64,000 nt of DNA from Arcobacteraceae bacterium (GTDB lineage: Bacteria; Campylobacterota; Campylobacteria; Campylobacterales; Arcobacteraceae): the NCBI GenBank assembly GCA_041694355.1, contig JASMTK010000012.1:11201-75200 (forward strand), in the 5' to 3' direction. The position numbers and the translations under genes are program-made. Shown one piece after another: positions 7,666 through 31,831 of the stretch. The notes under the pieces are model-generated. The model was not told the DNA's origin. It did no database searches and worked only from the letters and a program-made list of their open reading frames with translations. The number at the start of each line of letters is the position of its first letter. Positions within the stretch are counted from its first letter, which is position 1.

Positions 7666-9048
7666 ATGAAAGATAAAGTATATGTATTAGACACAAACAT
7701 AATATTGCAAAATATTCAAAATCTTAATAAAATTTCTGATAAAAAAACAAATACAATAATAATCCCAGAAACAGTACTATTAGAACTTGAAGACAAGAAA
7801 AAGCTGACAAATGAGTTAGGTTTTTACTCTAGAGAATTTGCAAGATTACTAGCAAAGATGAAGATAAAAGAGGTTGATTATAAAACAGGTTATAAAGTTG
7901 TAAAATTTTACAATGATGATTTAGATTTGCATATAATCTCAAAAGATACCTATGAAACAGAAATTGAACAAGTGCATATAAGTGAAAGCAACGATAAAAG
8001 AATAATTGAGGTTGCATCCATAGCACAGGAGTATTACAAAGGCTATCAAGCTATTTTCTTATCACTTGATGTTTATGCAAGAACATTTGCTCTTTTTAAA
8101 GGTATAAAAACTGAAACTTTACATGAAGATAAATCAACAGTACCAAACTTTGAGTTTTTAAAAAAACTAGAATTAGATTCATCTTGTTTTAACAGTTTAG
8201 AAAAAAAAGATATTTTATCAATAGACAAAGAGTATACACCTCAAAACTTCTCTTATAATTTTGAAAGTTCTGATGGGAATTGTACTTTTGCTATTGTTTA
8301 CAACAATAAACTTGACTTACTAAAAGAGTCAGATTTTAAAAATCTAAATATAAAACCAGTAAATCTAAAACAGAAGCTTTTTACAAAAGCTATTTTATCA
8401 AATATGTATGATTTATTAGTAATAGATGCAAAAGCTGGTAGTGGTAAAACACTTATGTCATTAGCTAGTGCTATGAGACTTATAGATTTAGGAGCATATG
8501 ATAAGATTGTTTATGTTAGAAACTCTATAGAGTCACTTGATAAGGGTGCTGATGTGGGTTACCTAGCTGGAAATGATGAAAAATTTAGAGTTTACAATAT
8601 GGCTTTATATGATACATTAGAGTTTATTGCAAAAAAACAACTTAAAAAAAGTGAAAATAGAGAGAACCAAGAATCAATAGAATCAAAAATCAATGAGATG
8701 CAATCTAAGTATTGTATTGAAACATTATGGCCAGGAGAAGCAAGAGGTAGAACACTATCTGGTGCTATTGTGATAATGGATGAATGGCAAAATAGTTCAG
8801 AAAAAACTACGCAATTAATTCTATCAAGACTTGATGAATCTTGTATGGCTATTGTAATTGGTTCAAATCGTCAAATCGATAATTTATATTTAAATAAATA
8901 TAATAATGGTCTAACAACTTTACTTAAACAAACTAAAGTTAAACATGATGAACTTAAGATGTTTGCTATTGAGTTAGATAAAGCTGTTAGAGGTAAATTT
9001 GCACAATTTACAGAAAGAATTTTTGAAAAGAAAAACAATAACAACTAA
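7666..9048 (+). CDS. PIN-PhoH (PhoH2-type) RNase/ATPase
   Basis: N-terminal PIN motifs (VLDTN, ELE, SND, SLD); Walker A AGSGKT; RGRT; DEWQN. Confidence 0.9.
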   Translation: MKDKVYVLDTNIILQNIQNLNKISDKKTNTIIIPETVLLELEDKKKLTNELGFYSREFARLLAKMKIKEVDYKTGYKVVKFYNDDLDLHIISKDTYETEIEQVHISESNDKRIIEVASIAQEYYKGYQAIFLSLDVYARTFALFKGIKTETLHEDKSTVPNFEFLKKLELDSSCFNSLEKKDILSIDKEYTPQNFSYNFESSDGNCTFAIVYNNKLDLLKESDFKNLNIKPVNLKQKLFTKAILSNMYDLLVIDAKAGSGKTLMSLASAMRLIDLGAYDKIVYVRNSIESLDKGADVGYLAGNDEKFRVYNMALYDTLEFIAKKQLKKSENRENQESIESKINEMQSKYCIETLWPGEARGRTLSGAIVIMDEWQNSSEKTTQLILSRLDESCMAIVIGSNRQIDNLYLNKYNNGLTTLLKQTKVKHDELKMFAIELDKAVRGKFAQFTERIFEKKNNNN

Positions 9049-9058
9049 GGAATAAAAA

Positions 9059-10738
9059 ATACAAAATAGATTAATAAATGACACAATTTATAGTCACATA
9101 GAATATACAAAGCTTGAAGATAAAATTCTTCAAACAAAAACAGTTAATAGATTACAGTTTATAACTCAAAATGCATTAGCATATTTCTCTTATCCATCAA
9201 TTACGACTAAGAGATTTATACACTCTTTAGGGACAATGCATTTAGCTTCATTTATGTTTAAAAACTCTCTTTTAAATGCAAACAAAAGCGCTAAAAACTC
9301 TTTCTTGGATGAACTAAAAGAGGTGATTTATAAAATAATAAAAGAGGATAATTTAAAACTTGATTTAAAAGATATGGAGTATTTTGATAATAAAGCTTTA
9401 TATCAATTTAATATCCCAACGAAATCAAAATCCCATAGAGCAGCATACTGTATTGTTTTACAAACTATTAGAATAGTAGGTTTGCTTCACGATGTGGGTC
9501 ATTTACCTTTTTCTCACCAAATAGAATATGCCTTAAAAAAAGTTTACTATAAAATCATAGAAAAAGAGAAAAACAATGAAGCACTTTTAGGAAGAGAAGT
9601 AGAGTTTAAAAATACTTATGAAGAGATTACAGATTTTACAAACAATGTACTTCACGAAGCAATAGGAAATGAACTTTTAAAATTATTATTTAGATATGAA
9701 TTAAAAGATTTAATCAAGAAAAATGTAGATAAAGAGTACATAAAACTTATTGAAAGACTATCTTTACTTATACTTGAAGAAGAGACTTACAACGGCTTTG
9801 ATTTTAAGGTTTTACATAATTACATTGATAGTACAGTAGATGCAGATAGATTAGATTATGTAAATAGAGATATGTTAGCAAGTGGTTATATAACAGGTCC
9901 AAGTGATCATATCAGAATCACGAAACAGACAGTTTTAGTAAAACATAATGATAAATTTGTATTAAGCTTTTTTGATATGGCACTGATTGATATTGAGCAT
10001 ATGTTAGAAATGAGATTTAATCTTTATAAAAAAGTTATCTATAATCATGGAATTGCTAAAACAGATGCACTTTTAGAAAATGTGGTTCAATATCTTTCAA
10101 ATAACTATTTTAACAATAGAATTAATTCTGCAAATGGTGAAGATAATATCTCAATGCTTTGGAACTTTAAAAAAGATGATACTGAAAGAGAGTTAGATAC
10201 TATTTCTTTACTAGATGAGAACTGGCTAATCTCACTTTTCAAAAAAGAGTATTTTTTTATAAAAGAGAAACAAAAACAAACAGCTAGAGATAAAAAATAC
10301 CTTTATTGCTTTGAAGAGGTTTTATTTGGGAAAAGAAGGTTTAAATCCCACTGGAAAAACCTAAATGAATTCTATAAAGAGTTGGGGTTTGAAACGGTAC
10401 AAAGATATAAGTTTAGAGAGAGTTTTGGATATATTACAGAACATAGAGCAAAAGTTCTTCAAAAAGAGCTTGATGAGTTTACTAAAAGATGGGAAGATAA
10501 AAAAGAGGATATTTTCTTTACATATCAGATTGTATCATTTAAGATTGGTATTCAAAAAGACTTTTGTTTATTTGATGGTGAAAACCTAATAAACATCGAT
10601 GAAGTGTCAACTTTAAGAAAAAGACTTAAACACTCGATGCTAAATACTGTTCCTTTTTATATTTACTCAAATAAGAAAAACCTAAATGAAAAAATGAAAA
10701 AAGAGTTAAAAGAGATTATTTTAAAAATCTTCTCTTAA
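9059..10738 (+). CDS. SAMHD1/COG1078-like HD phosphohydrolase, probable ATA start (559 aa)
   Basis: Conserved N-terminus (NDTIYSHIE...RLQFITQ...YPS...RFIHSLG) lies upstream of the ORF-track Met 9236; LLHDVGH; DADRLDYVNRD; SD AAGGA 7 nt before ATA 9059; in-frame TAA at 9053-9055. Confidence 0.85.
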   Translation: MQNRLINDTIYSHIEYTKLEDKILQTKTVNRLQFITQNALAYFSYPSITTKRFIHSLGTMHLASFMFKNSLLNANKSAKNSFLDELKEVIYKIIKEDNLKLDLKDMEYFDNKALYQFNIPTKSKSHRAAYCIVLQTIRIVGLLHDVGHLPFSHQIEYALKKVYYKIIEKEKNNEALLGREVEFKNTYEEITDFTNNVLHEAIGNELLKLLFRYELKDLIKKNVDKEYIKLIERLSLLILEEETYNGFDFKVLHNYIDSTVDADRLDYVNRDMLASGYITGPSDHIRITKQTVLVKHNDKFVLSFFDMALIDIEHMLEMRFNLYKKVIYNHGIAKTDALLENVVQYLSNNYFNNRINSANGEDNISMLWNFKKDDTERELDTISLLDENWLISLFKKEYFFIKEKQKQTARDKKYLYCFEEVLFGKRRFKSHWKNLNEFYKELGFETVQRYKFRESFGYITEHRAKVLQKELDEFTKRWEDKKEDIFFTYQIVSFKIGIQKDFCLFDGENLINIDEVSTLRKRLKHSMLNTVPFYIYSNKKNLNEKMKKELKEIILKIFS

Positions 10739-10786
10739 TTCTTTAAAGAAGTTTTGATAAAATTCACCAAAAAATAAAGAGAGTTT

Positions 10787-11152
10787 ATGATTTTAGGTGA
10801 TTGTCCCTATTGTTCAGGAAAAGTTTTATCAAAAAATATAAATGTAAATGGTAAAAAAGTTAAGTTATATAGCTGTGAAAATTCAAAAAAAGAGTATGAT
10901 GAAAGTGAACAGTACGTTTTTTCAGCAGACTCAACTTGTAGATTTAGAGTCTATTCAAATGCTTTTAAAAGATGGAATAAAAGAAGTTTTAGTGAAAATG
11001 AGATGAAAAGACTTTTAAGAGAGCAGCAAGCTGTTGTAAGACTTCACGGTAGAAAAGGTACAAGTGAGTATTTCAAATATGTAATTCCCCATGAAGAGTA
11101 TGGAGTATCTATACTTTGGGAAGAAGAAGTAGAAGAGCAAGACACCTTTTAA
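10787..11152 (+). CDS. Small Cys-containing protein resembling a Zn-ribbon plus topoisomerase C-terminal repeat
   Basis: CPYC, further Cys residues, CRFRVY...SENEMKRLL pattern; own promoter TG-a-TAAAAT at 10755-10763. Confidence 0.5.
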   Translation: MILGDCPYCSGKVLSKNINVNGKKVKLYSCENSKKEYDESEQYVFSADSTCRFRVYSNAFKRWNKRSFSENEMKRLLREQQAVVRLHGRKGTSEYFKYVIPHEEYGVSILWEEEVEEQDTF

Positions 11153-11724
11153 AACAGGTGTCCAAAATGCTCTTTTTTTGTATTTATATAATTTTCGTTG
11201 TATTCATTCAACTGGGTTATAGCTGGAATCCTCTTTACTATTGTAACTCCAATTGACTCAACAAAATTGATTTTCTCAGGATTATTTGTGATTAACTTTA
11301 GTTGTTTTATATCTAAGTCATTTAAAATATACTCAACTATACTATAATCTCTTTCATCCTCTTTAAAGCCTAATTCAATATTAGCTTCAACTGTATTTCT
11401 TCCTTGGTCTTGTAAAGCATAGGCATTTACTTTATTTAACAATCCAATATTTCTACCTTCTTGACGATGATAAATAACTAAACCACCCTCATTTGAGATA
11501 AAATCTAACGCTAAATTTAGTTGATTTTGACAATCACACTTTAAACTACCAAGTGCATCACCTGTAAGACATTCGCTATGAATTCTAACATAAGGAGCTT
11601 CTAATTTTTCAAATCCATCACTCATAATTGCTAAATGTTCTTGTTCATTTTGCTTATATGCTTTAATATAAAATTTACCATGTTTAGATGGAAGTTTTGC
11701 AATATTTGATTTTAATATTTCCAT
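11149..11724 (-). CDS. ribA: GTP cyclohydrolase II
   Basis: VRIHSECLTGDALGSLKCDC; QEGRNIGL; LITNNP. Confidence 0.96.
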   Translation of the reverse strand: MEILKSNIAKLPSKHGKFYIKAYKQNEQEHLAIMSDGFEKLEAPYVRIHSECLTGDALGSLKCDCQNQLNLALDFISNEGGLVIYHRQEGRNIGLLNKVNAYALQDQGRNTVEANIELGFKEDERDYSIVEYILNDLDIKQLKLITNNPEKINFVESIGVTIVKRIPAITQLNEYNENYINTKKEHFGHLF

Positions 11725-11821
11725 AATCTATTCTCATTTATAATTTTGCAACAAAGTTGCAATTATTAATTATATAGATTTTTTCTTAAATAAGAGTAAA
11801 AGTATCCTGTTTAGAAGAGTT

Positions 11822-11848
11822 TTAAAAGAGAGGTAGACTCTCTTTTAA
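11822..11848 (-). terminator. Intrinsic terminator after ppiC
   Basis: TTAAAAGAGAG-gtaga-CTCTCTTTTAA perfect hairpin. Confidence 0.7.
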
Positions 11849-12130
11849 TTAATCATTTCTAGAAGTTGTTTCTAATAAGTGGTATCCAAACTGTGTTTGT
11901 ACTGGTCCATGAACTACATTTAATTCATCATTAAACACTACTTTATCAAACTCTGGAACCATTTGACCTTGAAAAAATGTACCTAAATCTCCACCTTGTG
12001 CACCTGATGGACATTTTGAATACTCTTTTGCTAAATCTTCAAATTTTTCACCATTTTCAATTCTTTGTTTTAATTCATTACATTGTTCTTCTGTTTCAAC
12101 TAATAAGTGTCTTGCACTTGCTGATTTCAT
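11849..12130 (-). CDS. ppiC: Parvulin-type peptidyl-prolyl isomerase
   Basis: ARHLLV; FEDLAKEYSKCPSGAQGGDLG; TQFGYHL; 93 aa. Confidence 0.93.
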   Translation of the reverse strand: MKSASARHLLVETEEQCNELKQRIENGEKFEDLAKEYSKCPSGAQGGDLGTFFQGQMVPEFDKVVFNDELNVVHGPVQTQFGYHLLETTSRND

Positions 12131-12172
12131 ATTTATCCTTTATATTTTTTAAAAACAGAAGTCTATCATAAT

Positions 12173-14614
12173 CTAATTAAAAAATTCTATAGCATTCTTA
12201 CCCTGTTTTTTAGCAGCATACATAGCTGTATCAGCCTGCTTTATAATCTGTTTTGGATTTATTGAAGCATCTTTGAATAGAGTAACTCCAATACTTGGTG
12301 TTGATATATTTTTGTGACCATTTATCTCTTTTATATCATTTAAAGAGTCTTTTACTTTACTTGCTAAAACCTCTAAGTTTTCTTTTGCCTCTTTTGAATC
12401 ACTTGCGATACAATCAACTAGTATAATAAACTCATCCCCACCAATTCTAGCTATGGTATCCTCTTCTCTTACAGTCTCTTTTAACTTTTGTGCAACCATA
12501 AAAAGAAGTTTATCTCCAATATCATGTCCTAAAGTGTCATTTATAGCTTTAAAGTTATCCAAATCAATAAATATTAATCCACCAACAACATTATGTCTTA
12601 CTGTTTTTGTAATTGCATGTTCTATTCTATCAAGTAGTAAAAGTCTATTTGGTAATCCTGTTAGATTATCATGTGTTGCTTGATACTCTAATACCTTTTG
12701 TCTATCTATTTGCTCACTAATATCTATGTATTGACCCAAATAGTGCGTGATATTACCCTCTGCATCTTTTATAGCAGTAATTGTTGCCCTTAAAGGAATT
12801 TTTTGCTTACTTTTCTTGGTATTATATATTTCACCACTCCAAGCACCATAACTTAAAAGTTCACTCCACATATTTTCATAAAATCTTCTATCTTGATGCT
12901 TAGATTTAAACATACTAGGTCTTCTTCCAATAACCTCTTCTTTTGCATATCCCATAACTTTACAAAATGCATTATTTGCATTAATTATAAAAGAATCCCT
13001 ATCCGTAATAATCATAGGCTCATTTGATTCAAAGGCATAGGATGCTAGTTTTAATTCACTCTCCTGCTCTTTTCTATTCTTTTCATAATCAATTTTTTCT
13101 AAAGCATGAGTCATATCATTTATCATCTTTTCAAACAGTATCTCTATCTCTTCATCAAAAAAGTGACTTTCATTTGAGTATAAAACTAAAACTGAAACAA
13201 TTTTATCAAACTTCTTAATAGGAAATGCAGCTGCTGATTTGATATTGAATTCATCTGCAATATCAGATATAAAAGAGCTATCATCTTCATCATAATCATA
13301 TACAATAACGTCTTGTTTAGTATCAAGTACCTTTGTAACTAAATTCCCTCTATATTTTTCACTTTTAAATCTCTCATCAAGGATATTTTTTAACTCACCT
13401 TGCTGTGAAATAAGATTGAAACTTTTATCTTTTTTAATCTTATAAATAAATGCATATGACATTTTATGGTTTTGTGATATTAACTTACATATTTTACTAA
13501 ACAATATTTTTTCATCATCAATTTTCAACAAAAACTTATTAGTTCTATTTAAAAGTTTATAAACCTCTTGTTGTTTTTTAATCTTTGTAAAACTCTTTTG
13601 TTCATTTAAAATAATACTTCTTAAAACAAATAACAGACTAATCAAAGTAGCAAAAGAGACTAAAAGAAAAGTAAGACTTAATATCTGAGCTATATATGCA
13701 TCTCTTTGTAACTCTTTTGAGTATTTTGCGATTCTTTTTAGTAAATAATCATACACTCTATTTAGTGATTCATTTTTTAAAGAAGACAACTCCCACCACT
13801 TATCTAATGAAACTTTTGGTAGTTTATTATCTCTTATTCTTTTTTCAATTTGTTCAATCTTATTAGTTAAATCGTAAGGTAGTTCTTGGTTATATTTATT
13901 TGTTTCATTTAAATTTGCTTTTAATAAAAACTGTTTTTTATTAATTTTTTCTAAAACATCTCTTCTTTCTATCTCTTTAATAAGTTCTAAGTTTATGTTT
14001 GAAGATAGTATTGCTTTAGATACTAAAAGCTGTTTTAAAGAGGAGTTCTCTTTTTGTTCTAATAAATTTATTAAGTATGAAAATTTATTGTTAAAGTTTG
14101 TTGCACTTTCAATTGGCTTTAAATCATGTATTGTACCAATTAAGTTTTCAACAATTGATTCATACTCATAAAAGAAGTTAAACTTATGTTTTTCACTCTT
14201 ACTTAGTATATCTTCTCTTATATCCTTTATCCTACGAAAGTTAAGCTGTATATCTTTGATTGATTTATTAAAGTGAGTTTGAATATCTATTTTCAAACTT
14301 TTATCTAAATATTTACTATAGTATTTGTTTGTTTTTAATATCTGTTTTTCTAACTCTTTTTTATTTATCTTGTTTTGATTATAGATTAAAGCTAAGCTTC
14401 GCTCTTTTTGTAGAGTATTTATAAAACTTTGCGTAATTTGAGTGTATTCTAGGTTTTTCTCTACATTAGTCAATTCACTTAAAGTTCGAATTTTCTCATA
14501 AACTAATACTGTACTAAAATAGAGCATTCCAATAGCAGGAAGAGTAAATACTAGTATTATTTTAAGAAATAATGTATTTTTTAATAAAAAAAACTTTATT
14601 AGTCTATTTAGCAT
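12173..14614 (-). CDS. Membrane diguanylate cyclase (NIT-like, GAF, PAS, GGDEF)
   Basis: Periplasmic region with LQKER; GAF-like AAFP; PAS/PAC; HDNLTGLPNR; intact GGDEF with RxxD I-site (REED). Confidence 0.87.
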   Translation of the reverse strand: MLNRLIKFFLLKNTLFLKIILVFTLPAIGMLYFSTVLVYEKIRTLSELTNVEKNLEYTQITQSFINTLQKERSLALIYNQNKINKKELEKQILKTNKYYSKYLDKSLKIDIQTHFNKSIKDIQLNFRRIKDIREDILSKSEKHKFNFFYEYESIVENLIGTIHDLKPIESATNFNNKFSYLINLLEQKENSSLKQLLVSKAILSSNINLELIKEIERRDVLEKINKKQFLLKANLNETNKYNQELPYDLTNKIEQIEKRIRDNKLPKVSLDKWWELSSLKNESLNRVYDYLLKRIAKYSKELQRDAYIAQILSLTFLLVSFATLISLLFVLRSIILNEQKSFTKIKKQQEVYKLLNRTNKFLLKIDDEKILFSKICKLISQNHKMSYAFIYKIKKDKSFNLISQQGELKNILDERFKSEKYRGNLVTKVLDTKQDVIVYDYDEDDSSFISDIADEFNIKSAAAFPIKKFDKIVSVLVLYSNESHFFDEEIEILFEKMINDMTHALEKIDYEKNRKEQESELKLASYAFESNEPMIITDRDSFIINANNAFCKVMGYAKEEVIGRRPSMFKSKHQDRRFYENMWSELLSYGAWSGEIYNTKKSKQKIPLRATITAIKDAEGNITHYLGQYIDISEQIDRQKVLEYQATHDNLTGLPNRLLLLDRIEHAITKTVRHNVVGGLIFIDLDNFKAINDTLGHDIGDKLLFMVAQKLKETVREEDTIARIGGDEFIILVDCIASDSKEAKENLEVLASKVKDSLNDIKEINGHKNISTPSIGVTLFKDASINPKQIIKQADTAMYAAKKQGKNAIEFFN

Positions 14615-14704
14615 TTGTTCCTTCCCTTTAATCTTCTATTATATTTCAAATTTCCTAAAATACAAATAATAAACATTATTAAATGAGAGTTGAATGACTG
14701 TTTA

Positions 14705-16072
14705 TTACTTTTTGAAAACCCTAAAAAACTTCTTTTTAATTCTATTTTTTCTAAGACCATTGTATGCTTTAGATAGAACCTCTTTTTTAACAGCCACATA
14801 AGTACAAAAATCATAAGAAGTGATTTTTCCTATATCATTTTTATCAAGCCCTAACCCAGCTGTTAATGCACCTAAAATATCACCAGGTCTTAACTTCTGT
14901 TTTTTACCGCCATTTATATATAAAACCCTAAATTCACTATCTATTTCAAACTCATCATTTGCTTTTATATCGTCAAGTTTTCTAATAGACAAATCATCAA
15001 AAATCTCTTTTAATATCTCAACTTTATCAAAGTCTCTATTTTCATAAAAAGAGATAGCAACTCCACCTTTCCCTGCTCTAGCTGTTCTTCCTATTCTATG
15101 AGTATGAACTTTTTCATCTTTTGCTAAATCATAGTTTATAACTAAATCAATATCATCTATATGTAAACCTCTTGAAGCAACATCTGTAGCTATTAATACA
15201 GGATAAGATTTACTTGAAAATAGTGTTATTATCTCATCTCTTTCTCTTTGCTCTAAATCTGAATGTAATGTAAGTACATCAAGTCCCATATCAAAAAGTT
15301 CATCTGCTAACTCTTCACAAGTTATTTTCATATTACAAAAAATCAAAGTTGTTAAGGCTTGTTTCTCTCTTATAATTGAAGAGACAAATGAGGTTTTATT
15401 TTTATCTTGTAGATCAAATAACTCTTGTGTTATTTTTGCTTTTTCTTCATTTTTAACTTCAATCTGTACTGGATCAGTTAAAACAAATGAAGCAAGTTGT
15501 TTTATATTTTCCTCATAAGTTGCAGAGAACAACATAGTCTGTCTTTTTTTAGGAAGTGCTTCTATGATTTTTGAGATATCATCTAAAAACCCCATATCTA
15601 GCATCTTATCTGCTTCATCTAAAACTAATGTATCAAGATCATCAAAAGAGATATTCTCTTCATTTATATGTTGTAAAACTCTTCCTGGTGTTGCTACAAT
15701 AATATGAGCTCCGTGATACAATGAAGCTACTTGAGGCTTAAAAGGAACTCCACCTGTCAAAGTTAAAACTTTTACATTATGAATATGCCTAGATAACTTT
15801 CTAATTTCTTGTGCTATTTGATTTGCTAATTCTCTTGTTGGTGCTAAAACTAAAGATTGAATCCTAAATTTTTTAACATCAAGCTTTGTAACTATAGGAA
15901 TAGAAAAAGATACAGTTTTTCCAGAGCCTGTTTTTGCCCTTGCAATAATATCTTTATTTTGAAGACTATGTGGTAATGACAGTTCTTGAATCTCTGTCAT
16001 ATTTGTATAATCAAGAGTTTCTAAGTTTTTTAAAAACTCAGTGTTAAGTTTTAATTGTTTAAAAGTAGCTAT
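14705..16072 (-). CDS. dbpA: 23S rRNA-specific DEAD-box RNA helicase, probable ATA start (455 aa)
   Basis: AKTGSGKT; DEAD; SAT; HRIGRTAR; C-terminal GGKKQKLRPGDILGA RNA-binding domain; Q-motif region (FKQLKL...MTEIQ) upstream of ORF-track Met 16000; SD AAAGG 7 nt before ATA 16072. Confidence 0.9.
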   Translation of the reverse strand: MATFKQLKLNTEFLKNLETLDYTNMTEIQELSLPHSLQNKDIIARAKTGSGKTVSFSIPIVTKLDVKKFRIQSLVLAPTRELANQIAQEIRKLSRHIHNVKVLTLTGGVPFKPQVASLYHGAHIIVATPGRVLQHINEENISFDDLDTLVLDEADKMLDMGFLDDISKIIEALPKKRQTMLFSATYEENIKQLASFVLTDPVQIEVKNEEKAKITQELFDLQDKNKTSFVSSIIREKQALTTLIFCNMKITCEELADELFDMGLDVLTLHSDLEQRERDEIITLFSSKSYPVLIATDVASRGLHIDDIDLVINYDLAKDEKVHTHRIGRTARAGKGGVAISFYENRDFDKVEILKEIFDDLSIRKLDDIKANDEFEIDSEFRVLYINGGKKQKLRPGDILGALTAGLGLDKNDIGKITSYDFCTYVAVKKEVLSKAYNGLRKNRIKKKFFRVFKK

Positions 16073-16094
16073 GTTTTTGCCTTTGTTTTATTTC

Positions 16095-16103
16095 ATTATA
16101 ACA
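16095..16103 (-). promoter_or_regulatory. Extended -10 promoter of dbpA
   Basis: TG-t-TATAAT on the minus strand. Confidence 0.6.
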
Positions 16104-16110
16104 CAAACTA

Positions 16111-16140
16111 AAAAGATATAGAAGTAAATCTATATCTTTT
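16111..16140. terminator. Terminator hairpin overlapping the DedA stop codon
   Basis: AAAAGATATAGA-agtaaa-TCTATATCTTTT perfect 12-bp stem. Confidence 0.7.
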
Positions 16141-16660
16141 TGAAATAGTATGAAACTCCAAGCAAAATAACAGCAACAATTCCTAAGCCTATATATTTAA
16201 ATTCATCTGCAGAACTTAAGATAACTTCACCTGCTGTATATGAAGCATAACCAACTACAACAGCCCATAAAGCTGTTGCAAAAATATTAAAAACTGAGAA
16301 CTTAACCCCTGAATACTTTGTAAGTCCCATAGCTAGTGGTATTAATGTTTTAATTCCATAAATATATTTTTGGAAGAAAATCACAAAAGAACCGTATCTT
16401 CTCATCATTAGATGGGCCATTGCTATTTTTCTACCATACTTTTTCATCATATCTTTTGCATAAGATTTATTTTTTCTAGCTAAGAAGAAGAGGAACTGGT
16501 CTCCTAAAAAGTTAGAAACTCCTGCAACAGCAATAGAGATATATAGATTTAAATCTCCCGCATAAGATAAAATACCAGCAAAAACTAAACCAACAAATCC
16601 CCCACCAAAGGAATATGCAAATAGTGCTATATATCCCCAGTCTCTAATCAACTCTTCCAT
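16130..16660 (-). CDS. DedA family membrane protein
   Basis: LGDQFLFFLAR; FFQKYIYGIKT; FSVFNIFATALWA. Confidence 0.85.
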   Translation of the reverse strand: MEELIRDWGYIALFAYSFGGGFVGLVFAGILSYAGDLNLYISIAVAGVSNFLGDQFLFFLARKNKSYAKDMMKKYGRKIAMAHLMMRRYGSFVIFFQKYIYGIKTLIPLAMGLTKYSGVKFSVFNIFATALWAVVVGYASYTAGEVILSSADEFKYIGLGIVAVILLGVSYYFKKI

Positions 16661-17293
16661 TTATACCTCTATATTAAAATACTCGCAAGCTTCACTTGCA
16701 TCTTCATCATCTAAATCAATTTTTCCATTTTTCAAAGACTCTTTAGCAGTTTTCACAATAAAATCATAAACCTCTTTTCTTACATTATCTATGTCATTTA
16801 TAACTGCAAAACCACTAAATTGAACTTCATTTTCATAACAAAGAAGAGTACCCTCACAAGTCTCTTCTATAAAATCCGTTATTTGTCTATATGAAATTTC
16901 TAAAGCACTTCCATGCCAACCATACTCTTCTAATAAGCTATCTTCAAAAATCTCTACACCATCACTTTGATGATCAAAATATAGCATACTAGTCTTATTT
17001 AACTCAATAATTTCTTGCCAATTTGATAAAGGTTTTAAAACACACTTTGTACCTAAAAAACTTGGTTTATACTTATTAAATATTTTAAAAACCATATCTT
17101 TTAAATCATTTTTATCAAATTCAGTCTCGTCTAACTTCTCGTTTTTAAAAACCAATATCTTATTTTTTATTTCATCTTCACTATTTAATAGATTTCCATC
17201 TAAGTCAATAGCTAAAAAATTAGTTGTAGTTTTCTCGTTTAATTCTTGAATATCAATCTCTATACTTATATCTTTTATATTTACTTTCTTCAT
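16661..17293 (-). CDS. Acidic hypothetical protein
   Basis: 210-aa ORF with SD AGGA, abutting dedA; no recognised motif. Confidence 0.65.
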   Translation of the reverse strand: MKKVNIKDISIEIDIQELNEKTTTNFLAIDLDGNLLNSEDEIKNKILVFKNEKLDETEFDKNDLKDMVFKIFNKYKPSFLGTKCVLKPLSNWQEIIELNKTSMLYFDHQSDGVEIFEDSLLEEYGWHGSALEISYRQITDFIEETCEGTLLCYENEVQFSGFAVINDIDNVRKEVYDFIVKTAKESLKNGKIDLDDEDASEACEYFNIEV

Positions 17294-23143: not shown

Positions 23144-23621
23144 CAGAAAATCCTTTAAAAATAAAAACTAATATAGCTAGCATAAATAGAATTATTCCTA
23201 TTGGCATAGCTAATTGTGTAAGGTATAATGGTGTTTCAGAAACATTTTCAGATAACATATTTAAATCGTATGAATCATATGTATATAAAATAGTTCTATA
23301 TAAAGTAAAAGCTAAAACTGCTAAAGTAATAATTGCTGCAACAATATCAATCTTTTTGTTAGCTTTTTTTGATAATCTTGAAGTAATTATGTTAATTCTA
23401 ATATGACCATCTTTTGAAAATGTATAACCTAAAGCTAAAAAAATTGAAGCAAGGTATAGATATCCACTATACTCATCGGCAATCATTGTTGATGTATCAA
23501 AAAAAGATCTTAAAAAAATCTCTACTAAGATTAAAACTACTAAAGAAACAATGGCTAATCCACCAAGATAAGCTCCCAGTTTGGTAAGCTTATCTAAAAA
23601 ATTAAAGATAGTATTCATCAA
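23133..23621 (-). CDS. dctQ: TRAP transporter small permease
   Basis: Four TM segments; DGHIRINI motif. Confidence 0.88.
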   Translation of the reverse strand: MMNTIFNFLDKLTKLGAYLGGLAIVSLVVLILVEIFLRSFFDTSTMIADEYSGYLYLASIFLALGYTFSKDGHIRINIITSRLSKKANKKIDIVAAIITLAVLAFTLYRTILYTYDSYDLNMLSENVSETPLYLTQLAMPIGIILFMLAILVFIFKGFSDDK

Positions 23622-23624
23622 GAA

Positions 23625-24581
23625 CTACTTTCTATACTCTTTGAATATATCTTTAATTTGTGAATTTGCATCTTTTAGGTAGTTTTCTAAAAGATTGTTA
23701 GCCATTTTATCTAACTCTTTTTTTAACTCTTTATTTGCTTCACTAACTTTTACACCATTGTCTTTTAATGCTTTTAATGCTACTTTATCTTCTTGTTTTG
23801 CAGCTTCCCATTGTAACTTTTCAATCTCTTTTGAAGCTTTTAATACAGCTTTTTGTTGAGACTTATCTAATGAATTCCAGTAATCTAAGTTGATTGTAAC
23901 TGCTTGTAAAGGATATGCATAATTTATTTTTGTATAGTGACTTAAAACTTCCCAGAATTTCCCATCTTTTCCAGATGCTGATGAAGTTACAACAGAATCA
24001 ACCATACCAGTTCTTAATGAAGAGTAAACCTCAGCCCAAGGTAATGCAACAGCATTTCCACCTGCTTGATTTACAAATGCAGCTGAGTTTTTATCATAAG
24101 TTCTTGTTTTAACACCCTCAAAATCTTCAATAGAGTTAATCTCTTTTTTCGAATAAAAACCTGAAGCTGGCCAAGTTACAGAGTAAAGTAGTTTTTGGTT
24201 CCATTTTGTAGCTGTTTTCTCATAAGCAGGTTTTGCTATTTGATATAATTTATAAGCATCATCATAAGACTTAGCAATAAATGGTAGTGCAGAAATACCA
24301 AATACCTTACCTCCACCAGATGTAAAAGGAATAAACATATCTGTCATTGCAACAGTAGCATCTTTAACTGCTTTTAATGGGTTACCTTTGATTAAAGCAC
24401 TACCAGGGTGTACAGTAATATCTACACTACCATTTGAATAATCTTCAACTAATTTTGCAAATTTTTGAGCACCTTGTGTATGGAAGTTATTTGCACCATA
24501 TTTTGCATTTAAATCCATTTTGATGTTCCCAGCTAATGCAACACTAGCTAATGAAGCAATTAGTAAACTTTTCTTTAACAT
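23625..24581 (-). CDS. dctP: TRAP substrate-binding protein
   Basis: Signal peptide; KTRT (conserved Arg); LPWAEVYSSLRTGMVD. Confidence 0.9.
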   Translation of the reverse strand: MLKKSLLIASLASVALAGNIKMDLNAKYGANNFHTQGAQKFAKLVEDYSNGSVDITVHPGSALIKGNPLKAVKDATVAMTDMFIPFTSGGGKVFGISALPFIAKSYDDAYKLYQIAKPAYEKTATKWNQKLLYSVTWPASGFYSKKEINSIEDFEGVKTRTYDKNSAAFVNQAGGNAVALPWAEVYSSLRTGMVDSVVTSSASGKDGKFWEVLSHYTKINYAYPLQAVTINLDYWNSLDKSQQKAVLKASKEIEKLQWEAAKQEDKVALKALKDNGVKVSEANKELKKELDKMANNLLENYLKDANSQIKDIFKEYRK

Positions 24582-24632
24582 TTCGACTCCTTAGTTATTT
24601 TATATAAGGAATCGTAAAATAATCAAGTGAGT

Positions 24633-25316
24633 TTAAAGTGAGTTTTTAAGTTTGTAACCCTCTTGTGGCTTATTTGTGATAATATCAATAGGTAATCTTT
24701 GACGGAACTCTTTGATAAAGGTTTTAAGTGCTGAAAGACTCATTGACTTATCTCTCCACAAATACTCCTCAATTAAGTCATAAGTCACAACCCTATTCCT
24801 ATTTTTGTGAAGCAAAATTAAAAAATCTTTATCACGTTTCCTCAAAGGTATAATCTCACTTTTGTATATTAATTCATATTGAGTCATATCAAAAAATAGC
24901 TCTTCACTAAAGTTTAAAACCTCATTTAATCTATTTCCAAAAGCTTTGACTATTCCATTTAAAAGTGATTCTGAATTTACAGGTTTTAAGATGTATTGAT
25001 TTATATTTAGATTGATTAAGTCTAAAAGATACTCTTCATTTGAGTATGCAGTAATCATCACAATTAAAGTATCTAAGTCCTCTTCTCTAATATCTTTAAC
25101 CATTGAAATTCCATTTTCATTTGGCATTTCTATATCACTTAAAATTACATCAGGTTTATAATCACAATATAAGTAGTATCCATCTTGTGCATTTGAAGCT
25201 TCATATACCTCTTTAAAGTAGTATTTTAATGTATTTACCAATCTTTTTCTAATACCATCTTCATCTTCAACACAAAGAATAGTAAACTTTTCTAACTGTT
25301 TTATCTCTTTTTCCAT
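24633..25316 (-). CDS. OmpR-family response regulator
   Basis: VEDE; ILSDIEMP; ITAY; LKP; C-terminal winged-helix (GY) region. Confidence 0.9.
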   Translation of the reverse strand: MEKEIKQLEKFTILCVEDEDGIRKRLVNTLKYYFKEVYEASNAQDGYYLYCDYKPDVILSDIEMPNENGISMVKDIREEDLDTLIVMITAYSNEEYLLDLINLNINQYILKPVNSESLLNGIVKAFGNRLNEVLNFSEELFFDMTQYELIYKSEIIPLRKRDKDFLILLHKNRNRVVTYDLIEEYLWRDKSMSLSALKTFIKEFRQRLPIDIITNKPQEGYKLKNSL

Positions 25317-25372
25317 ACTTAAGCCTTATTTTAAATGCAGGTGTATTTTATAAAAATAAGGCTAAGATATGA

Positions 25373-26329
25373 TTAAGTCACTTTTAGAAATTCTAAAAAC
25401 TTTTTTAAATAGTAGTAAGAGATATGTCCTTGCATCTTCTCATACATAATCATATAAGCTTCATATTTATCAAGTTTCTCTTTATATGTTCTTTTTGTAG
25501 TTAGGGCATTAAAAATATCACAAATAGCTAAAATCTTTGCAAACTCATCAATTTCATTTGCTTTTAAACCATAAGGATAACCTGAACCATCACATTTTTC
25601 ATGATGCTGTTCAACAATTTTTATCAATCTTGTATTTGTCTCACCTTGCTCTTTTAAAATATCAACTGAGTGTTTTGGATGAGACTTTACTATTTCAAAC
25701 TCTTCTTTAGTAAGTTTTCCATTTTTACAAATAATATCCTTGCTAACTCTTCTTTTTCCCAAATCATGTAGTAAAGCAGCTTTTCCTAAAGTCTTTAAAT
25801 CTTTTTTAGGAAGCTTTAAATAACATCCAAACCCTAATGCGTATGTTGCAACATCAATACAATGAGTTGAAGTATAATAGTCATAAGATACAACTTTTAG
25901 AAGTGATTTTATTGCTAGTTCGTCTTTTAGAATAAACTCTATTTTAGATGTTAAGATATTATCAACACTTTTTAAGGCCTCAGGAGTAACCTCATCTTCA
26001 AAAAGATTTCGAACAGTCTCCTTTGCTAAATCCTTTATCAAAGTTGCTTTAACTTCTGATGAAAAAGAGTCATTATTGACAATATCTGACATAAGATTTT
26101 CAATATCTGCTTGATATTTAATCTTATCCTTTGTATTTATAAAAACTTGTGTTAACTCTTCTTTTTGATAAAAATCACAAGTGGTTTTATCATACTTTGA
26201 ATTTTTATCAACTAAAACGGTGAAACTTTTATTATTGATTTTTGCATAAATTGGATAATCAAACTCTTCTTTTAACTCTAAGAAGCTTTTTGGTACTCCA
26301 AATACATACTGTTTTGAACTCTCTGCCAT
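25373..26329 (-). CDS. HD-GYP domain protein
   Basis: THCIDV; LLHDLGK; HHEKCDGSGYP; DIFNAL. Confidence 0.88.
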   Translation of the reverse strand: MAESSKQYVFGVPKSFLELKEEFDYPIYAKINNKSFTVLVDKNSKYDKTTCDFYQKEELTQVFINTKDKIKYQADIENLMSDIVNNDSFSSEVKATLIKDLAKETVRNLFEDEVTPEALKSVDNILTSKIEFILKDELAIKSLLKVVSYDYYTSTHCIDVATYALGFGCYLKLPKKDLKTLGKAALLHDLGKRRVSKDIICKNGKLTKEEFEIVKSHPKHSVDILKEQGETNTRLIKIVEQHHEKCDGSGYPYGLKANEIDEFAKILAICDIFNALTTKRTYKEKLDKYEAYMIMYEKMQGHISYYYLKKFLEFLKVT

Positions 26330-26410
26330 AATTAAACTAACACCTCTTTATAATTTTAATATTATAATATTACTAGAAAAAAGTATCACAAAAGTATCAT
26401 TTTATACTTT

Positions 26411-27934
26411 TTAGTCAAAAGGTAAGACAATCAAAAAGCAAGCTCCTATAGAATTATTTTCCACTGAAATTTCTCCATTCATATTCTTTTCTATAATCAT
26501 TTTTGCCATATAAAGTCCTAACCCTGTACCTTTTGAAGCACTTTTTGTAGTAAAGTATGGCTCAAATATCAAATCAATATGTTGAGGATTAACTCCGCCT
26601 GCATTATCTTGTACATAGATCAATGCATTTTTACCCTCTTTGCTAACTTTCACATCAATTTTTGGATTTGAAATATCTCTTTGAATCAATGCATCTTTTG
26701 CATTTGAGATTAGATTTAACATCACTTGGGCAAACTCTCTTTCATATCCATGAATTAAGCTATTAAAACTCACCTTTTTATTTATTTTGATACCAAAACT
26801 TTTCAATGATGCATCTACTAATGTTATGGCTTCATTACAAGCATCATCAATATAAAAATCAACTTTCTTCTTATCAGGTTTAAAAAAGTTTCTAAAATCC
26901 TCAATTGTATTTGACATAAACTGAATCTGCTTATTTGATTCATCAACTGTCTCTTTTATCATTTCACTTGTGACTTTATTGAATTTATTTGCTGTTTCAA
27001 GTTCCATTAATACACCAGAAACCTCACTTAGAGGCTGTCTCCACTGATGAGCAATCATACTAAGCATTGCACCCATTCTAGCTAGTCTTGATTGGTGAAG
27101 CATTGCCCTATCTTTTTTCTTAACCTCTTTAATAGCTTTTTGTACTTTCAACTCTAGGTTTTTGTTTAAATCCTCTAATAAATACTCTTTCTTCTTAACA
27201 CTCATTTGATATTGTGCAAATACTTGCGTGATTTTTTTAGACATTATAAAAGATAGAAATCCAATAAATAAAATCACTAAAAAAGCAATGGTTACAACTA
27301 ACTCAATATGCTTATTAATTCTTTGTTGTAGCTGCTTTTTATTTTCTAAAATTGATTTTTCAATATCATCTATATATAAACCTGCACCTATAACCCAATT
27401 ATACTTTTCATAAAGTCTAAAAAAGCCAAGTTTCTTAGATGCTTTTATCTCATTTGGCTTTTGCCAATAATACTCTATAAAAACACCATCTGGTTTTTTT
27501 ACAGTTTTATCAATAAACTCTTTTGTGATAAAAGTACCCATTGCATCTTTTAAGTCAATATCATAAGTGTTTAAACTATCTTGTCTAAAAGGGTGAGCTC
27601 TTAAATAGTACTTTGTATCGTGTATCCAAATATATCCATGTTTTTCATATCTTATTGTCTCTGTGAATTTTAGTATCTCTTTTTTTAACTCTTTTTGAGA
27701 TAGTTTTTTATTTCTTTTTACATGGTGCTTTATGTAATTTATTATGTAGTTAACTTCTTTTTTCAAGATATTTTTTTGTTTGTTTAAGTATGCTTTCTCA
27801 ACTGCTTTACTCTCTGATTCGAAATAGTTGTTTTGATTTTCAATAAAAAAGTAGATTGTAAAAAAAGCAATAAGTATTACAGTTACAATTGGGGTTAATA
27901 TAATAAGTTTTGGTATATTTTTTTCAGTAAACAA
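26411..27934 (-). CDS. Single-Cache (sCache_2-like) sensor histidine kinase
   Basis: IRYEKHGYIWI...HP...YYWQKP; AHQWRQPL; TTG start 5 nt after AGGAG (the track GTG at 27940 overlaps the SD). Confidence 0.87.
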   Translation of the reverse strand: MFTEKNIPKLIILTPIVTVILIAFFTIYFFIENQNNYFESESKAVEKAYLNKQKNILKKEVNYIINYIKHHVKRNKKLSQKELKKEILKFTETIRYEKHGYIWIHDTKYYLRAHPFRQDSLNTYDIDLKDAMGTFITKEFIDKTVKKPDGVFIEYYWQKPNEIKASKKLGFFRLYEKYNWVIGAGLYIDDIEKSILENKKQLQQRINKHIELVVTIAFLVILFIGFLSFIMSKKITQVFAQYQMSVKKKEYLLEDLNKNLELKVQKAIKEVKKKDRAMLHQSRLARMGAMLSMIAHQWRQPLSEVSGVLMELETANKFNKVTSEMIKETVDESNKQIQFMSNTIEDFRNFFKPDKKKVDFYIDDACNEAITLVDASLKSFGIKINKKVSFNSLIHGYEREFAQVMLNLISNAKDALIQRDISNPKIDVKVSKEGKNALIYVQDNAGGVNPQHIDLIFEPYFTTKSASKGTGLGLYMAKMIIEKNMNGEISVENNSIGACFLIVLPFD

Positions 27935-28003
27935 ACTCACTCCTATAAAAATAGCATTTTATCAAATTAAAATGTGTTATGAGTGAGTTTTAAAACAATT
28001 TTT

Positions 28004-28441
28004 TTAATATTGGTATTTATGGTATTTATTGGCTTCTTTTGCCTTTCTTTGTTCAATTTTTTTATAAGTTTCTATAGCTTTTTGTTTTAACTGTTCATCA
28101 ATATCTTGATTTACATACTCTTTGATTAAAGTATCTAAAACCAAAGCATAAACAATTGAGTTTAATTTCATTGACTCCTCATCTCTCATCAATCTATCTA
28201 AATCTATAGCATAAACTGCCTCTTGAAAAGTGAAAAAAAGTCTTTGTTCTTCTTTGTCTAGTCTGTAAGAATACCCTAAGATTGTTAAAAAGTTCTCTTT
28301 ATACTCTTTGTCAAGTTTTTGTTCTTTTAGTGATTTACTAAATTCTTCAAACTTAATAGCACAACTATTTACTATATCATCAGCTTCCATAATCTTGTTT
28401 TTAAAACTAAATATATAATCAGAAATATCTTTATAAATCAT
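28004..28441 (-). CDS. Hypothetical protein
   Basis: 145-aa ORF coupled to the upstream gene by a TAATG overlap. Confidence 0.6.
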   Translation of the reverse strand: MIYKDISDYIFSFKNKIMEADDIVNSCAIKFEEFSKSLKEQKLDKEYKENFLTILGYSYRLDKEEQRLFFTFQEAVYAIDLDRLMRDEESMKLNSIVYALVLDTLIKEYVNQDIDEQLKQKAIETYKKIEQRKAKEANKYHKYQY

Positions 28442-29016
28442 TAATCTTCCAATCCAAAATATGAGTAAATTGCGTTTTCTCTTACTATACTAAAATCACC
28501 TTTTAAAGTTACCATTTTTGATTTATCATATTTATACTCATAAGAAAAATCAAACTGACTTAAAAGTTTTGAAAATAAATCCCCTGAGGTATCTACTATA
28601 AATACATCTTTATTTACTTCATAAATATAAATAAAATTTAGTATATATTTTTTATCAACTTCGTATACAATAAAATCAAAACCATCAAACTCATACTTTT
28701 CTAAAACTGACATCTCCTTTATATTCTCTCTGTTTTTAAGTAATGATATATATAAAGAGCTTGGTAAACCATCCCATGTCACATCATTGTCAATATTTAC
28801 ATACTCTACTAATAGTGAGGAACTAAGTATAGTATAGGCTTCTAAAACATATGAATCATGTCTTGTATTTGTTTCATAGTTATCTATAGGATAAGAGTAA
28901 ACTGTCTCAATATCTACTTTAAATCTTAATTCATTTTCATCAAAACTAAATAATGGTCTTGATAATTTAATAAAACTTTTGAAAAAACCTTTTACAAGTC
29001 TAGTTAGTGCACCCAT
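28441..29016 (-). CDS. Hypothetical protein
   Basis: 191-aa ORF with SD AAGG. Confidence 0.6.
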   Translation of the reverse strand: MGALTRLVKGFFKSFIKLSRPLFSFDENELRFKVDIETVYSYPIDNYETNTRHDSYVLEAYTILSSSLLVEYVNIDNDVTWDGLPSSLYISLLKNRENIKEMSVLEKYEFDGFDFIVYEVDKKYILNFIYIYEVNKDVFIVDTSGDLFSKLLSQFDFSYEYKYDKSKMVTLKGDFSIVRENAIYSYFGLED

Positions 29017-29076
29017 TTGAAGCCTTATAATTAATAGTTATAAAACTTTATCATAAATTATAGAGAAGTTCAAGTT

Positions 29077-29101
29077 AAAGACCCACGAAAAGTGAGTCTT
29101 T
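29077..29101 (-). terminator. Terminator after the MCP gene
   Basis: AAAGAC-c-CAC-gaaaa-GTG-a-GTCTTT hairpin. Confidence 0.5.
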
Positions 29102-31569
29102 TAGAATGTTTCCCATTCATCATCAGATGATGAGTTATCTTTTATTGAAGTATGTTGTGTAGTGTTTTTATTATAACTATTTTTTGGTTTTGATGAAGAG
29201 TTATTTGTTGTTTTTCTCTCATTTGTCATTTCAGTGTAACTACTTTGGTTGTTGATTTTTAAATCTTCAACCTCACGTGTAACGTCAATGTTATTTTTAC
29301 CCTCAAACTCTTTTTCATTTGCTTTACTTACAATACTTTTAGCTAGTTCTGAAGTACTTAGTGCAATATTTCTTGTTTCACTTGCCACTGAAGCATTTTT
29401 CTGAGTTTGTTGGTCTAGTGAATTAATAGCATCGTTTATTTGAACAATACCTGTTTCCTGCTCTTTTGAAGCACTTGAAACATCAGATATCAACTCAATA
29501 GTTTTATCAATATTGCTATTTAATCCTGAATAACCTTTTATCATCTCATCAGCAATATTTTTACCCTCATTTGCTTTTATGTTTGCATTTTCAACAAGTG
29601 ATTTAATCTCATTTGCTGCATCAGCACTTCTATTTGCTAAGTTTCTTACTTCTTGGGCTACTACTGCAAAACCTTTCCCTGCTTCACCTGCTGTTGCTGC
29701 TTCTACTGCTGCGTTTAAACTTAATATATTTGTTTGGAATGCTATTTGATCGATTATTGTTATTGCTTCATTGATTGATGTTACTTGTGTATTAATCTCA
29801 TCCATAGCATCTGTTGTTTTTGTAGCTAAACTTTGACCTTCACTTGCTGAGTTTGTAACCTGATTTGCTAGATTTGACATCTCAGAAATCTTATGAGTTG
29901 TTGAAGTTACATTTCCTGTAATCTCTTCTAAAGCAGCAGCTGTTTCTTCAAGTGATGCAGCAGCTTCATTTGAAGCTTGATTTAACGTCTCAACATTTGC
30001 TAATAACACATCAGATGAACCATCCATGATTAGTCCACTTTTCTTATTGTCAATCAACATTTGCGTTGTTGCATTTCCAAGAGAATTAACTCCATTTGAT
30101 AATTTTAATAGATGTTCTTTTAATCCATCTGTTTTTACTCTTGGTACATAGTTGTATTTTGAGTACTGCTCTAACACATCAAGAATACTATCGATATTAT
30201 CTTCTAAGTTATCCGCCATTTGATTTAATACATCTTTTAACTTATTAAGTGCTGGGTTCTCAACTGAGGTGTTGATTCTTTGTCTTAAATCACCTTGCTC
30301 AAACTCATTTAATACAGAGATTGTCTCTTCAATTATGTCTCTATCTTCATCAATAGATTTTTTAGCTTTTTGAATATTTTCATTTACAACTTTTGCCATC
30401 AATCCAATTTCATCAAAGCTATCACTCTCTAACTCAACAACCTCTTTTGACTCTCTGTTTATGTATTTAAAGAATCCTTCTAAACCTTTTTGGAATCTCT
30501 CTAATCTTTTAACTACCACATTATTTATAATAATAATTGCACCAATAACAACTAATGCAAGTAATACAACTGCGATAATCAAAATTAAATCTCTAATTGC
30601 ATTTGGTGTTTTTAGTACTTCTGCCTCATCTATTTCTGAAATAATTGCCCACTTTAAATTTTCACTTATATTTAAAGGTGCGTATGCTGAAAGTACTGGG
30701 TTTCCATTGTAGTCTGTAATAACTTCTGTATTTTTCTTACCTGCTAAAGCCTCTTTTGTAGCTTTAGTATCAACTTTTGAGTTATTTGAAAATGAAGCTT
30801 TTAAACTATGACCATCAGGGTCTAAGTAACTATCACTTCTCATTAACATATCAGAACCTACTAAATAGTCCTCTTGTGAATCACCATAACCTTTTCTAAA
30901 CTGCATAATGTTGTTTATAGCTCTATCACTAATCTGAAATACCAATATAGCTTTTAAATTACCATTTTCATATACAGGATTACCTATAAACATTGCAGGA
31001 GCATTGTTACTTGGTGCATAAGGTCTCATATCTACATATGTAACTTTATCATTTTGTAAAGTTTTTCTCCATACTTCACCTAATCCACTATCTTTTAAAG
31101 AACCATTTTTTAAATTTGCACCATAATCAGACTCTTTTGTAGCTGTATAAATAACATGCCCTGTATTAGGAGTGATTAAAAATACGTCATAATATCCATA
31201 CTCTTTAATATAATTTTGAAAGAAATTTTCAAAAGGTTTTGTAGCATTTTGCACTTCACTTGAACTTACATCATAACTTGAACCACTATTTAAACCAACA
31301 GTTGAAAATGTCTGTTCTAAACTATGATATAGTTTTTTTACATCTGAACTGTTTGCTAAAACTTTTATATCACCAATTCTTTCATCAAAAAACTTTTGAA
31401 TTTGATTTGATTTAGAGTCTCTAGCAGCTGTAAGCATAGAGTAGCTTTGATTTATTAATCCCTCTTTTGCTTTAGTTACTGAAAAACCTGCAAGAATAAT
31501 AGTAAGTAAACTTAAAGATACTACTATTAAAACAATCACTTTTGCTTTGATTGTTAGTTTTTTATGTAT
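29101..31569 (-). CDS. Methyl-accepting chemotaxis protein with dCache-like sensor, probable ATA start
   Basis: [37 protein letters not shown] signalling domain; TM-sensor-TM-HAMP; SD AAGGGA 5 nt before ATA 31569 gives [10 protein letters not shown] ahead of TM1. Confidence 0.9.
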
Positions 31570-31831
31570 TCTATTCCCTTATATTAAATTTTATCTGATT
31601 ATAAAATAAACAATATTTATATTTCATTAATTAAGTTACTTTTTTATAACTAACAAAAACATATCTTTTAAGAAATATTTAATGTTGGTATTCTTACTAA
31701 GTTTTGTTACATTACTGTTACATAACATTTAGTTATTTATAACCGCTAAAATAACTTTTATATGTTTTTTTATATGTTAATTACATATAATTAATATTTT
31801 GATACAATACAAAAAAATCAAATGGATGACT

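Follow-up and report, generated by a model that had tools for sequence, protein, structure and literature searches.

Sequence evidence for ATA, ATT and ATC start codons behind ordinary Shine–Dalgarno sequences in Arcobacteraceae

In Escherichia coli the codons AUA, AUC and AUU initiate translation at 0.1–3% of the AUG rate, and infC and pcnB are the sole genes with confirmed non-canonical starts (10.1101/063800). In Staphylococcus aureus AUH starts (AUA, AUU or AUC; ATH in DNA) reach approximately 10–30% of AUG behind extended Shine–Dalgarno (SD) sequences (10.1101/2025.06.19.660503), and conserved starts of this kind were identified by Ribo-Ret in infC (AUA), ccpN (AUA), cvfC1 (AUU) and citZ (AUA) (10.1101/2025.06.19.660503; PMC13009471). 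With an optimised initiation region in vitro, AUA was AUG-like and sensitive to nutrient state and ppGpp (PMC5499595). Here we analysed a 64,000 nt stretch from an Arcobacteraceae bacterium (the window; G000:C12:11201-75200) in which three genes, encoding an HD-domain phosphohydrolase (HD), the DEAD-box helicase DbpA and a methyl-accepting chemotaxis protein (MCP), had been predicted to initiate at ATA. The source is a 2.77 Mb draft genome of 28.9% GC in 143 contigs, and its nearest named relatives are Arcobacter and Poseidonibacter species. Comparison of orthologous sequences confirmed the ATA codons of HD and dbpA as real starts and indicated that the same start type is kept across the family. 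We consider it highly probable that they represent ordinary SD-directed near-cognate initiation by fMet-tRNA, with weak output, on approximately 1% of the genes of the family. All support for ATH starts in the source organism comes from sequence comparison.

ATA starts in the HD hydrolase, dbpA and MCP genes

In each of the three genes the ATA lies 5–7 nt behind an SD (AAGGA, AAAGG or AAGGGA) with an in-frame stop codon 2–6 codons upstream, and all coordinates of the original prediction hold (Table 1). The SD consensus of the genome is likewise AAGGA, and a profile over the genome's starts, of which the canonical ones (defined here as ATG, GTG and TTG) comprise 81% ATG, 14% TTG and 5% GTG, places the GG peak at −9/−8. 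The first G of the GG is at −9 in dbpA and MCP and at −10, near this peak, in HD. Minimum-energy folding leaves all three initiation regions unpaired, and no Rfam family or structured leader was found near the three starts.

As predicted, no canonical codon precedes essential sequence in HD or dbpA. The first in-frame canonical codon of HD is codon 60, beyond the RFIHSLG motif, and is preceded by 59 N-terminal residues that include this motif. An N-terminal match was found in 10 of the first 30 relatives compared at this locus, all with an SD: seven of them, from three genera, have ATA at the aligned position, one has ATT, and the two most distant have ATG. Within an Arcobacteraceae family set of 184 genomes the N-terminal motif was recovered from 73 genomes of 10 genera, in which the aligned codon is NTA (62), NTT (7), NTC (2) or NTG (2). 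Of 20 start regions retrieved, 19 have A as the first base of this codon and one, from an NTG genome (G179), reads TTG. An AAGGA-type SD lies 5–8 nt 5′ of the aligned codon in all 20; in 13 the interval from the upstream stop to the ATH holds no canonical codon at all. Across genera, the first 59–60 or so amino acids of HD are 77–98% identical in ten relatives with differences at third positions, and the 59 N-terminal residues are therefore coding sequence. The SD of HD shares bases with the stop codon (TAA, 9046-9048) of the upstream gene, which encodes a PIN-PhoH protein according to Pfam. Since the HD start lies directly behind this stop codon, translation of HD is probably also coupled to termination of PIN-PhoH.

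The first canonical codon of dbpA is the ATG at codon 25, which encodes the conserved internal Met of the "TMTxxQ" Q-motif. Orthologues in the same genus start at ATA, ATC or ATT and those of other genera at ATC or ATA, whereas more distant genomes have ATG, GTG or TTG. Among 60 further family genomes, 24 offer an SD-led ATH only, two are ambiguous and 34 have a canonical start, giving ATH in approximately 34 of the 78 genomes inspected, from at least 11 genera. Several of the canonical starts lack an SD or stand right behind a TATAAT box, and the latter position suggests a leaderless mRNA. Taken together, the orthologues of HD and dbpA carry ATA, ATT or ATC behind the same SD, as expected if the ATA of each gene is its genuine start. 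We also noted that ATC is frequent among the ATH starts of dbpA in other genera, and that in genera g11, g2 and g14 (loci L343, L347-L349) dbpA has an ATG 5–6 nt after TATAAT without an SD, a layout like that of uvrB described below. A second DEAD-box RNA helicase of the source genome has an apparent ATC start, so that ATH starts are apparent in two of its three DEAD-box helicases.

An alternative is that these genes are translated from the next canonical codon and that the upstream part of each open reading frame (ORF) is an untranslated leader. Many public annotations of HD orthologues do begin at an internal ATG or TTG (494–544 aa), and MCP has a GTG 10 codons downstream of its ATA. Annotation of the HD orthologue is not uniform, as three conflicting length classes are found (494–501 aa, 519–544 aa and 562–576 aa), and some entries lack the catalytic His and are named "hypothetical". 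Against downstream initiation, HD would lose its first metal-ligand His (in RFIHSLG) along with the conserved 59 residues, dbpA would start at a conserved internal Met and lack the aromatic residue that precedes the Q-motif, and the candidate codons downstream have no SD. The MCP GTG, also without an SD and placed in a small hairpin, would drop the conserved lysine-rich KKLTIKAK that precedes the hydrophobic segment. We regard this alternative as extremely unlikely.

MCP had been singled out as the weakest of the three cases, and its ATA proved to be unique to the source genome: the aligned codon is ATG behind the same SD in all nine close orthologues inspected. Comparison of orthologues thus upheld an ATH start for HD and dbpA and not for MCP. 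The pattern in the orthologues points to a recent ATG-to-ATA change in MCP or, less likely, to a consensus error; such a change would probably lower synthesis of the protein without abolishing it. Exact-pattern scans of metagenome and genome contigs found no second, independent copy of the MCP start region. The downstream GTG of MCP is GTT in four same-genus orthologues that keep ATG, and another genus has both GTG and ATG. The T-to-G change that created the GTG could represent a compensating new start or a coincidence.

Could a true ATG have been miscalled as ATA throughout? A consensus or assembly error is suggested by the MCP codon, which is peculiar to a 143-contig draft, faces ATG in its nine close orthologues and has no independent copy. 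The HD and dbpA orthologues of dozens of independent genomes, however, have ATH at the same position, some 20 other genes of the genome show the same pattern, and a G-to-A consensus error falling exactly on a start codon is improbable. Error is therefore a very unlikely explanation of the ATA starts.

Table 1. Initiation regions and genes discussed in the text. Plain positions are those of the window; positions with a contig handle are those of the source genome (G000).
Feature	Position	Strand	Details
HD hydrolase initiation region	9047..9061	+	SD AAGGA 9047-9051; in-frame TAA 9053-9055; 7-nt spacer; ATA 9059-9061
HD-domain phosphohydrolase gene	9059..10738	+	559 aa from ATA; Pfam HD
dbpA promoter and initiation region	16070..16103	-	extended -10 TGtTATAAT 16103-16095; in-frame TAA 16090-16088; SD AAAGG 16084-16080; 7-nt spacer; ATA 16072-16070
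dbpA gene	14705..16072	-	455 aa from ATA; DEAD, Helicase_C and DbpA RNA-binding domains
MCP promoter and initiation region	31567..31603	-	-10 TATAAT 31603-31598; in-frame TAA 31581-31579; SD AAGGGA 31580-31575; 5-nt spacer; ATA 31569-31567
Methyl-accepting chemotaxis protein gene	29101..31569	-	822 aa from ATA; Pfam MCPsignal
Alternative MCP start	31537..31539	-	GTG; 10 codons 3′ of ATA; no SD; 3′ arm of weak hairpin
tatD start	C83:8934	-	ATT; MIIDTHCHLD
uvrB start	C15:23939	+	ATC behind AAGGAG
rnpA start	C103:31548	-	ATT
Second DEAD-box RNA helicase	C90:11585	-	424 aa; apparent ATC behind AAAGGA
AEC transporter, first copy	C30:1883	+	ATA
AEC transporter, second copy	C32:7083	-	ATA
Uncharacterised protein	C93 -43335		ATA
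UPF0227/YqiA-like esterase ORF	C106:3085	+	ATA; 89 aa
infC	C87 ~23950-23400	-	TTG 6 nt after GGGAG; directly behind thrS

ATH starts across the genome and the family

The whole genome was surveyed through 2419 non-shadow ORFs with a minimum length of 100 codons, and a codon was called "designated" if it was the single in-frame codon at optimal SD spacing and lay at least 15 codons 5′ of the first canonical codon. ATH was found at 24 of 101 SD-designated codons compared with 478 of 4438 in the background (odds ratio (OR) 2.7, p = 1.3e-4), as ATA in 14 (2.8-fold), ATC in seven (5.8-fold) and ATT in three. Curation by Pfam matches and by conserved N-terminal motifs seen in the translations left approximately 21 well-supported ATH starts, which amount to about 1% of ORFs and 1.4% of SD-led starts. 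The pattern predicted from three genes accordingly recurs genome-wide. From the three cases among approximately 55 genes of the window the original prediction had proposed a lineage-level tolerance; ATH use does extend beyond these genes and through the lineage, yet the window is a locally rich sample of a trait present in about 1% of genes.

The curated ATA starts (8) are those of HD, dbpA, MCP, two AEC transporters, a TetR regulator, Ppx and an uncharacterised protein. ATC (8) is the start assigned to uvrB, ftsK, an EamA transporter, an ABC-transporter permease, PnuC, a lipoprotein, an HI0933-like flavoprotein and the second DEAD-box helicase, and ATT (5) that of tatD, rnpA, a Major Facilitator Superfamily (MFS) transporter, a secreted amidase and CobB. 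Conserved N-terminal features of the curated cases would be lost at the next canonical start, among them the tatD HxH motif, the helix-turn-helix (HTH) of the TetR regulator, signal peptides and the Walker A motif of uvrB, which precedes the first canonical codon. Similarly, the lipoprotein has a lipobox, the GxGxxG motif of the flavoprotein follows two codons after the ATC, and the next canonical start of the uncharacterised protein would cut its N-terminal hydrophobic segment; Pfam matches back several other cases. ATC accounts for 8 of the 21 ATH starts (38%) compared with 11% of internal Ile codons (p = 0.0014), an excess that sets the ATH starts apart from ordinary Ile codons.

Candidates dropped as false positives were panB (for which a canonical ATG suffices), a C-terminal fragment of a TonB receptor, ResB and several shadow ORFs of odd composition. 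A ribosome-binding-site score based on a position weight matrix (PWM), applied to ATH starts near a canonical alternative, lacked specificity, as 7.9% of randomly chosen internal codons passed, and gave no usable ATH signal. With a relaxed motif filter the ATH enrichment was noisy and not significant (OR 1.15), although extra individual candidates were obtained. The two AEC transporter copies lie on small contigs and are near-identical, with ATA as the start of both and no difference in the leader; the gene may truly be duplicated, or one copy may stem from a collapsed strain variant or from the 3.2% contamination of the assembly. In a UPF0227/YqiA-like esterase ORF the family match begins with residue 1, encoded by an ATA, but the ORF comprises 89 aa against a profile of 187 positions and is probably a truncated or frameshifted gene.

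Several of these starts were followed through relatives. In 800 kb of a genome of the same genus (G001), ATH occupies 5 of 9 SD-designated codons (OR 11, p = 9e-4), and two of the same genes use another ATH codon than in the source genome, namely the AEC transporter (ATC rather than ATA) and the EamA transporter (ATT rather than ATC). The tatD gene has ATH in 16 of 18 family representatives, whereas ATG, GTG or TTG is found in the 11 other Campylobacterales families with a readable start. Family-wide, among the 140 genomes with the IxDTHCH motif, tatD starts at ATH in 119 (ATA 86, ATT 29, ATC 4) and at ATG in one; the other 20 fall in two genera, the representatives of which begin at ATG and have one or two additional codons. 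An ATH start is thus kept while its third base changes repeatedly, through 17 genera in tatD and 10 in HD. The ATT start of rnpA is kept through almost the whole order, and here the start overlaps the last codons of rpmH (AGA TTA GCT GTT TAA), whose 3′ end is conserved, so that the L34 coding sequence constrains the codon.

The uvrB gene has an SD followed by ATC or ATA in five genera, with ATC in the source genome and three other genera and ATA in one more. The five relatives from the same genus, and a number of further genera, instead have an ATG 5–7 nt after TATAAT and no SD, which suggests a leaderless mRNA. One gene would then use SD-led ATH in some genomes and leaderless ATG in others, each a distinct weak mode of initiation.

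A neutral origin has to be weighed against these patterns. According to this explanation the ATH starts carry no regulatory meaning, and arise by decay of ATG under strong AT mutation pressure in genes whose expression is weakly selected. The fresh ATG-to-ATA change in MCP would be an instance, dbpA flips among ATH, TTG, GTG, ATG and leaderless forms within genera, and the near-absence of ATG from the tatD and HD starts is close to neutral third-position expectation at 29% GC. Speaking against it, ATH persists in tatD (17 genera) and HD (10 genera) despite turnover of the third base, ATC is about threefold over Ile codon usage, and uvrB alternates between two weak modes. We hold neutral decay to be a tentative but serious possibility.

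Some of the same observations, and a few others, weigh against SD-directed near-cognate initiation as a selected and family-specific trait. ATG is about as rare at the tatD and HD starts as an AT-biased, neutral third position would make it. The dbpA start is labile within genera, where ATH swaps with canonical and leaderless starts; this looks closer to weak selection, and fits tuning as well. In MCP the ATA is private to one assembly and, with GTG at codon 11, the absence of a canonical start holds only weakly. In addition, 800 kb of a genome from another family (G030) showed no ATH enrichment (OR 1.0, with a background inflated by shadow ORFs) but contains plausible ATH starts too, in ftsK-like and ksgA-like genes, so that the trait cannot be called special to Arcobacteraceae. 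The shadow ORFs of G030 lie in four repeated GC-rich loci that are probably rRNA operons.

Initiation machinery and proposed mechanism

Initiator tRNAs of the source genome, identified with ARAGORN, are canonical: three genes encode the C1xA72 mismatch, three consecutive G-C pairs in the anticodon stem and a CAU anticodon. None of the 49 tRNAs detected by ARAGORN has a UAU (TAT) anticodon, and a private initiator tRNA matching the unusual start was ruled out, as all three initiator copies read CAT. Alignment with E. coli IF3 showed that Y75, D106, R133 and E134 are kept while R131 is replaced by K and R99 by S, both of which states also occur in Geobacillus IF3. The infC gene starts at TTG, in the context "aat TTG agt", in 29 of 30 Campylobacterales genomes (loci L164-L193) and at ATG in one; the AUU-based IF3 autoregulation of E. 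coli is therefore absent here. More broadly, these genomes indicate that the order Campylobacterales lacks the AUU or AUA infC start on which IF3 autoregulation depends in E. coli and S. aureus.

Relaxed-fidelity initiation in mycoplasmas is associated with loss of G-C pairs from the initiator anticodon stem and with substituted IF3 residues (E. coli R131 and others). A mycoplasma-like relaxation of the initiator tRNA was discarded, as the three G-C pairs of its anticodon stem are present. A change of genetic code in which ATA specifies Met was also ruled out: ATT and ATC serve as starts too, and ATA makes up 38% of 49,262 internal Ile codons.

These observations bear on the possibility that a lineage-specific change of machinery (a relaxed IF3, an altered initiator tRNA or a dedicated tRNA) makes AUH initiation efficient. 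In its favour, ATH starts are about ten times commoner than the two confirmed cases of E. coli, the classical IF3 loop is missing where infC begins with TTG, and IF3 has K and S at the positions of E. coli R131 and R99. Yet the initiator tRNA is fully canonical and no UAU-anticodon tRNA was found, the four IF3 residues named above are kept and the two substitutions are shared with Geobacillus, ATH provides only about 1% of starts in a gene-specific rather than random distribution, and the infC TTG is order-wide and so does not track the family. A change of machinery is quite unlikely: the sequences gave no sign of special machinery or of the relaxed IF3 proofreading suggested by the original prediction.

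In our preferred explanation, SD-directed near-cognate initiation, an optimal AAGGA-type SD, whose GG lies approximately 9 nt before the start, would position the 30S subunit on a leader that is rich in A and free of structure. Ordinary initiator fMet-tRNA would then use its CAU anticodon to pair with positions 1 and 2 of the AUA, AUU or AUC codon, and the protein would begin with fMet at a small fraction of the AUG rate. AUH starts would form a stable minority, about 1%, of family genes, whose products (nucleases, repair and helicase proteins, regulators and transporters) may be needed in small amounts. The affected genes encode low-copy proteins, in keeping with attenuation. From these comparisons we infer initiation with fMet, low efficiency and a down-tuning role; deliberate down-tuning, one of the options originally proposed, would be compatible with the data.

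A more specific proposal extends this to regulation. IF3 of E. coli disfavours both AUH starts and leaderless mRNAs. In Campylobacterales, where infC begins with TTG and lacks the AUU feedback, AUH-started and leaderless mRNAs might together constitute a translational regulon of low-abundance nucleic-acid enzymes that is sensitive to IF3 or to growth state and ppGpp. Its members would include uvrB, tatD, dbpA, the second DEAD-box helicase, the PIN-PhoH/HD pair, rnpA and ftsK. Were this true, the alternation at uvrB would reflect selection to stay in the class rather than selection on the codon. We consider such a regulon unlikely.

Comparison with known systems

Starts of this kind are already known. 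We found no paper specifically on ATH starts in Arcobacteraceae, Arcobacter or Campylobacter, and a C. jejuni Ribo-seq paper does not mention them. Standard gene callers allow only ATG, GTG and TTG, which would leave approximately 1% of Arcobacteraceae genes truncated or mis-started, including the housekeeping genes uvrB, tatD, rnpA and ftsK. NCBI translation table 11 already lists ATT, ATC, ATA and CTG as starts, but annotation practice is inconsistent, as illustrated by at least three N-termini for HD. A defined set of genes with a weak start that persists through the family, together with an infC lacking the AUU loop, also offers a testable system for distinguishing selected attenuators from tolerated decay under AT pressure.

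The Arcobacteraceae starts resemble the AUU starts of E. coli infC and pcnB (class IIA, discriminated by IF3) in that AUH follows a normal SD and is kept in orthologues, and presumably also in reading by fMet-tRNA with a third-position mismatch and in low output. They differ in that infC has TTG and no IF3 loop, in that approximately 20 genes per genome are involved rather than two, and in that AUA and AUC are as frequent as AUU. S. aureus is likewise low in GC, and its AUA and AUU starts also follow strong SDs at good spacing, are kept in relatives and are missed by annotation. In S. aureus, however, four sites were mapped experimentally, whereas the approximately 21 sites reported here derive from sequence; the SD in Arcobacteraceae is the ordinary AAGGA core and not demonstrably extended, and the gene set is a different one, comprising the HD hydrolase, dbpA, tatD, uvrB, ftsK and rnpA.

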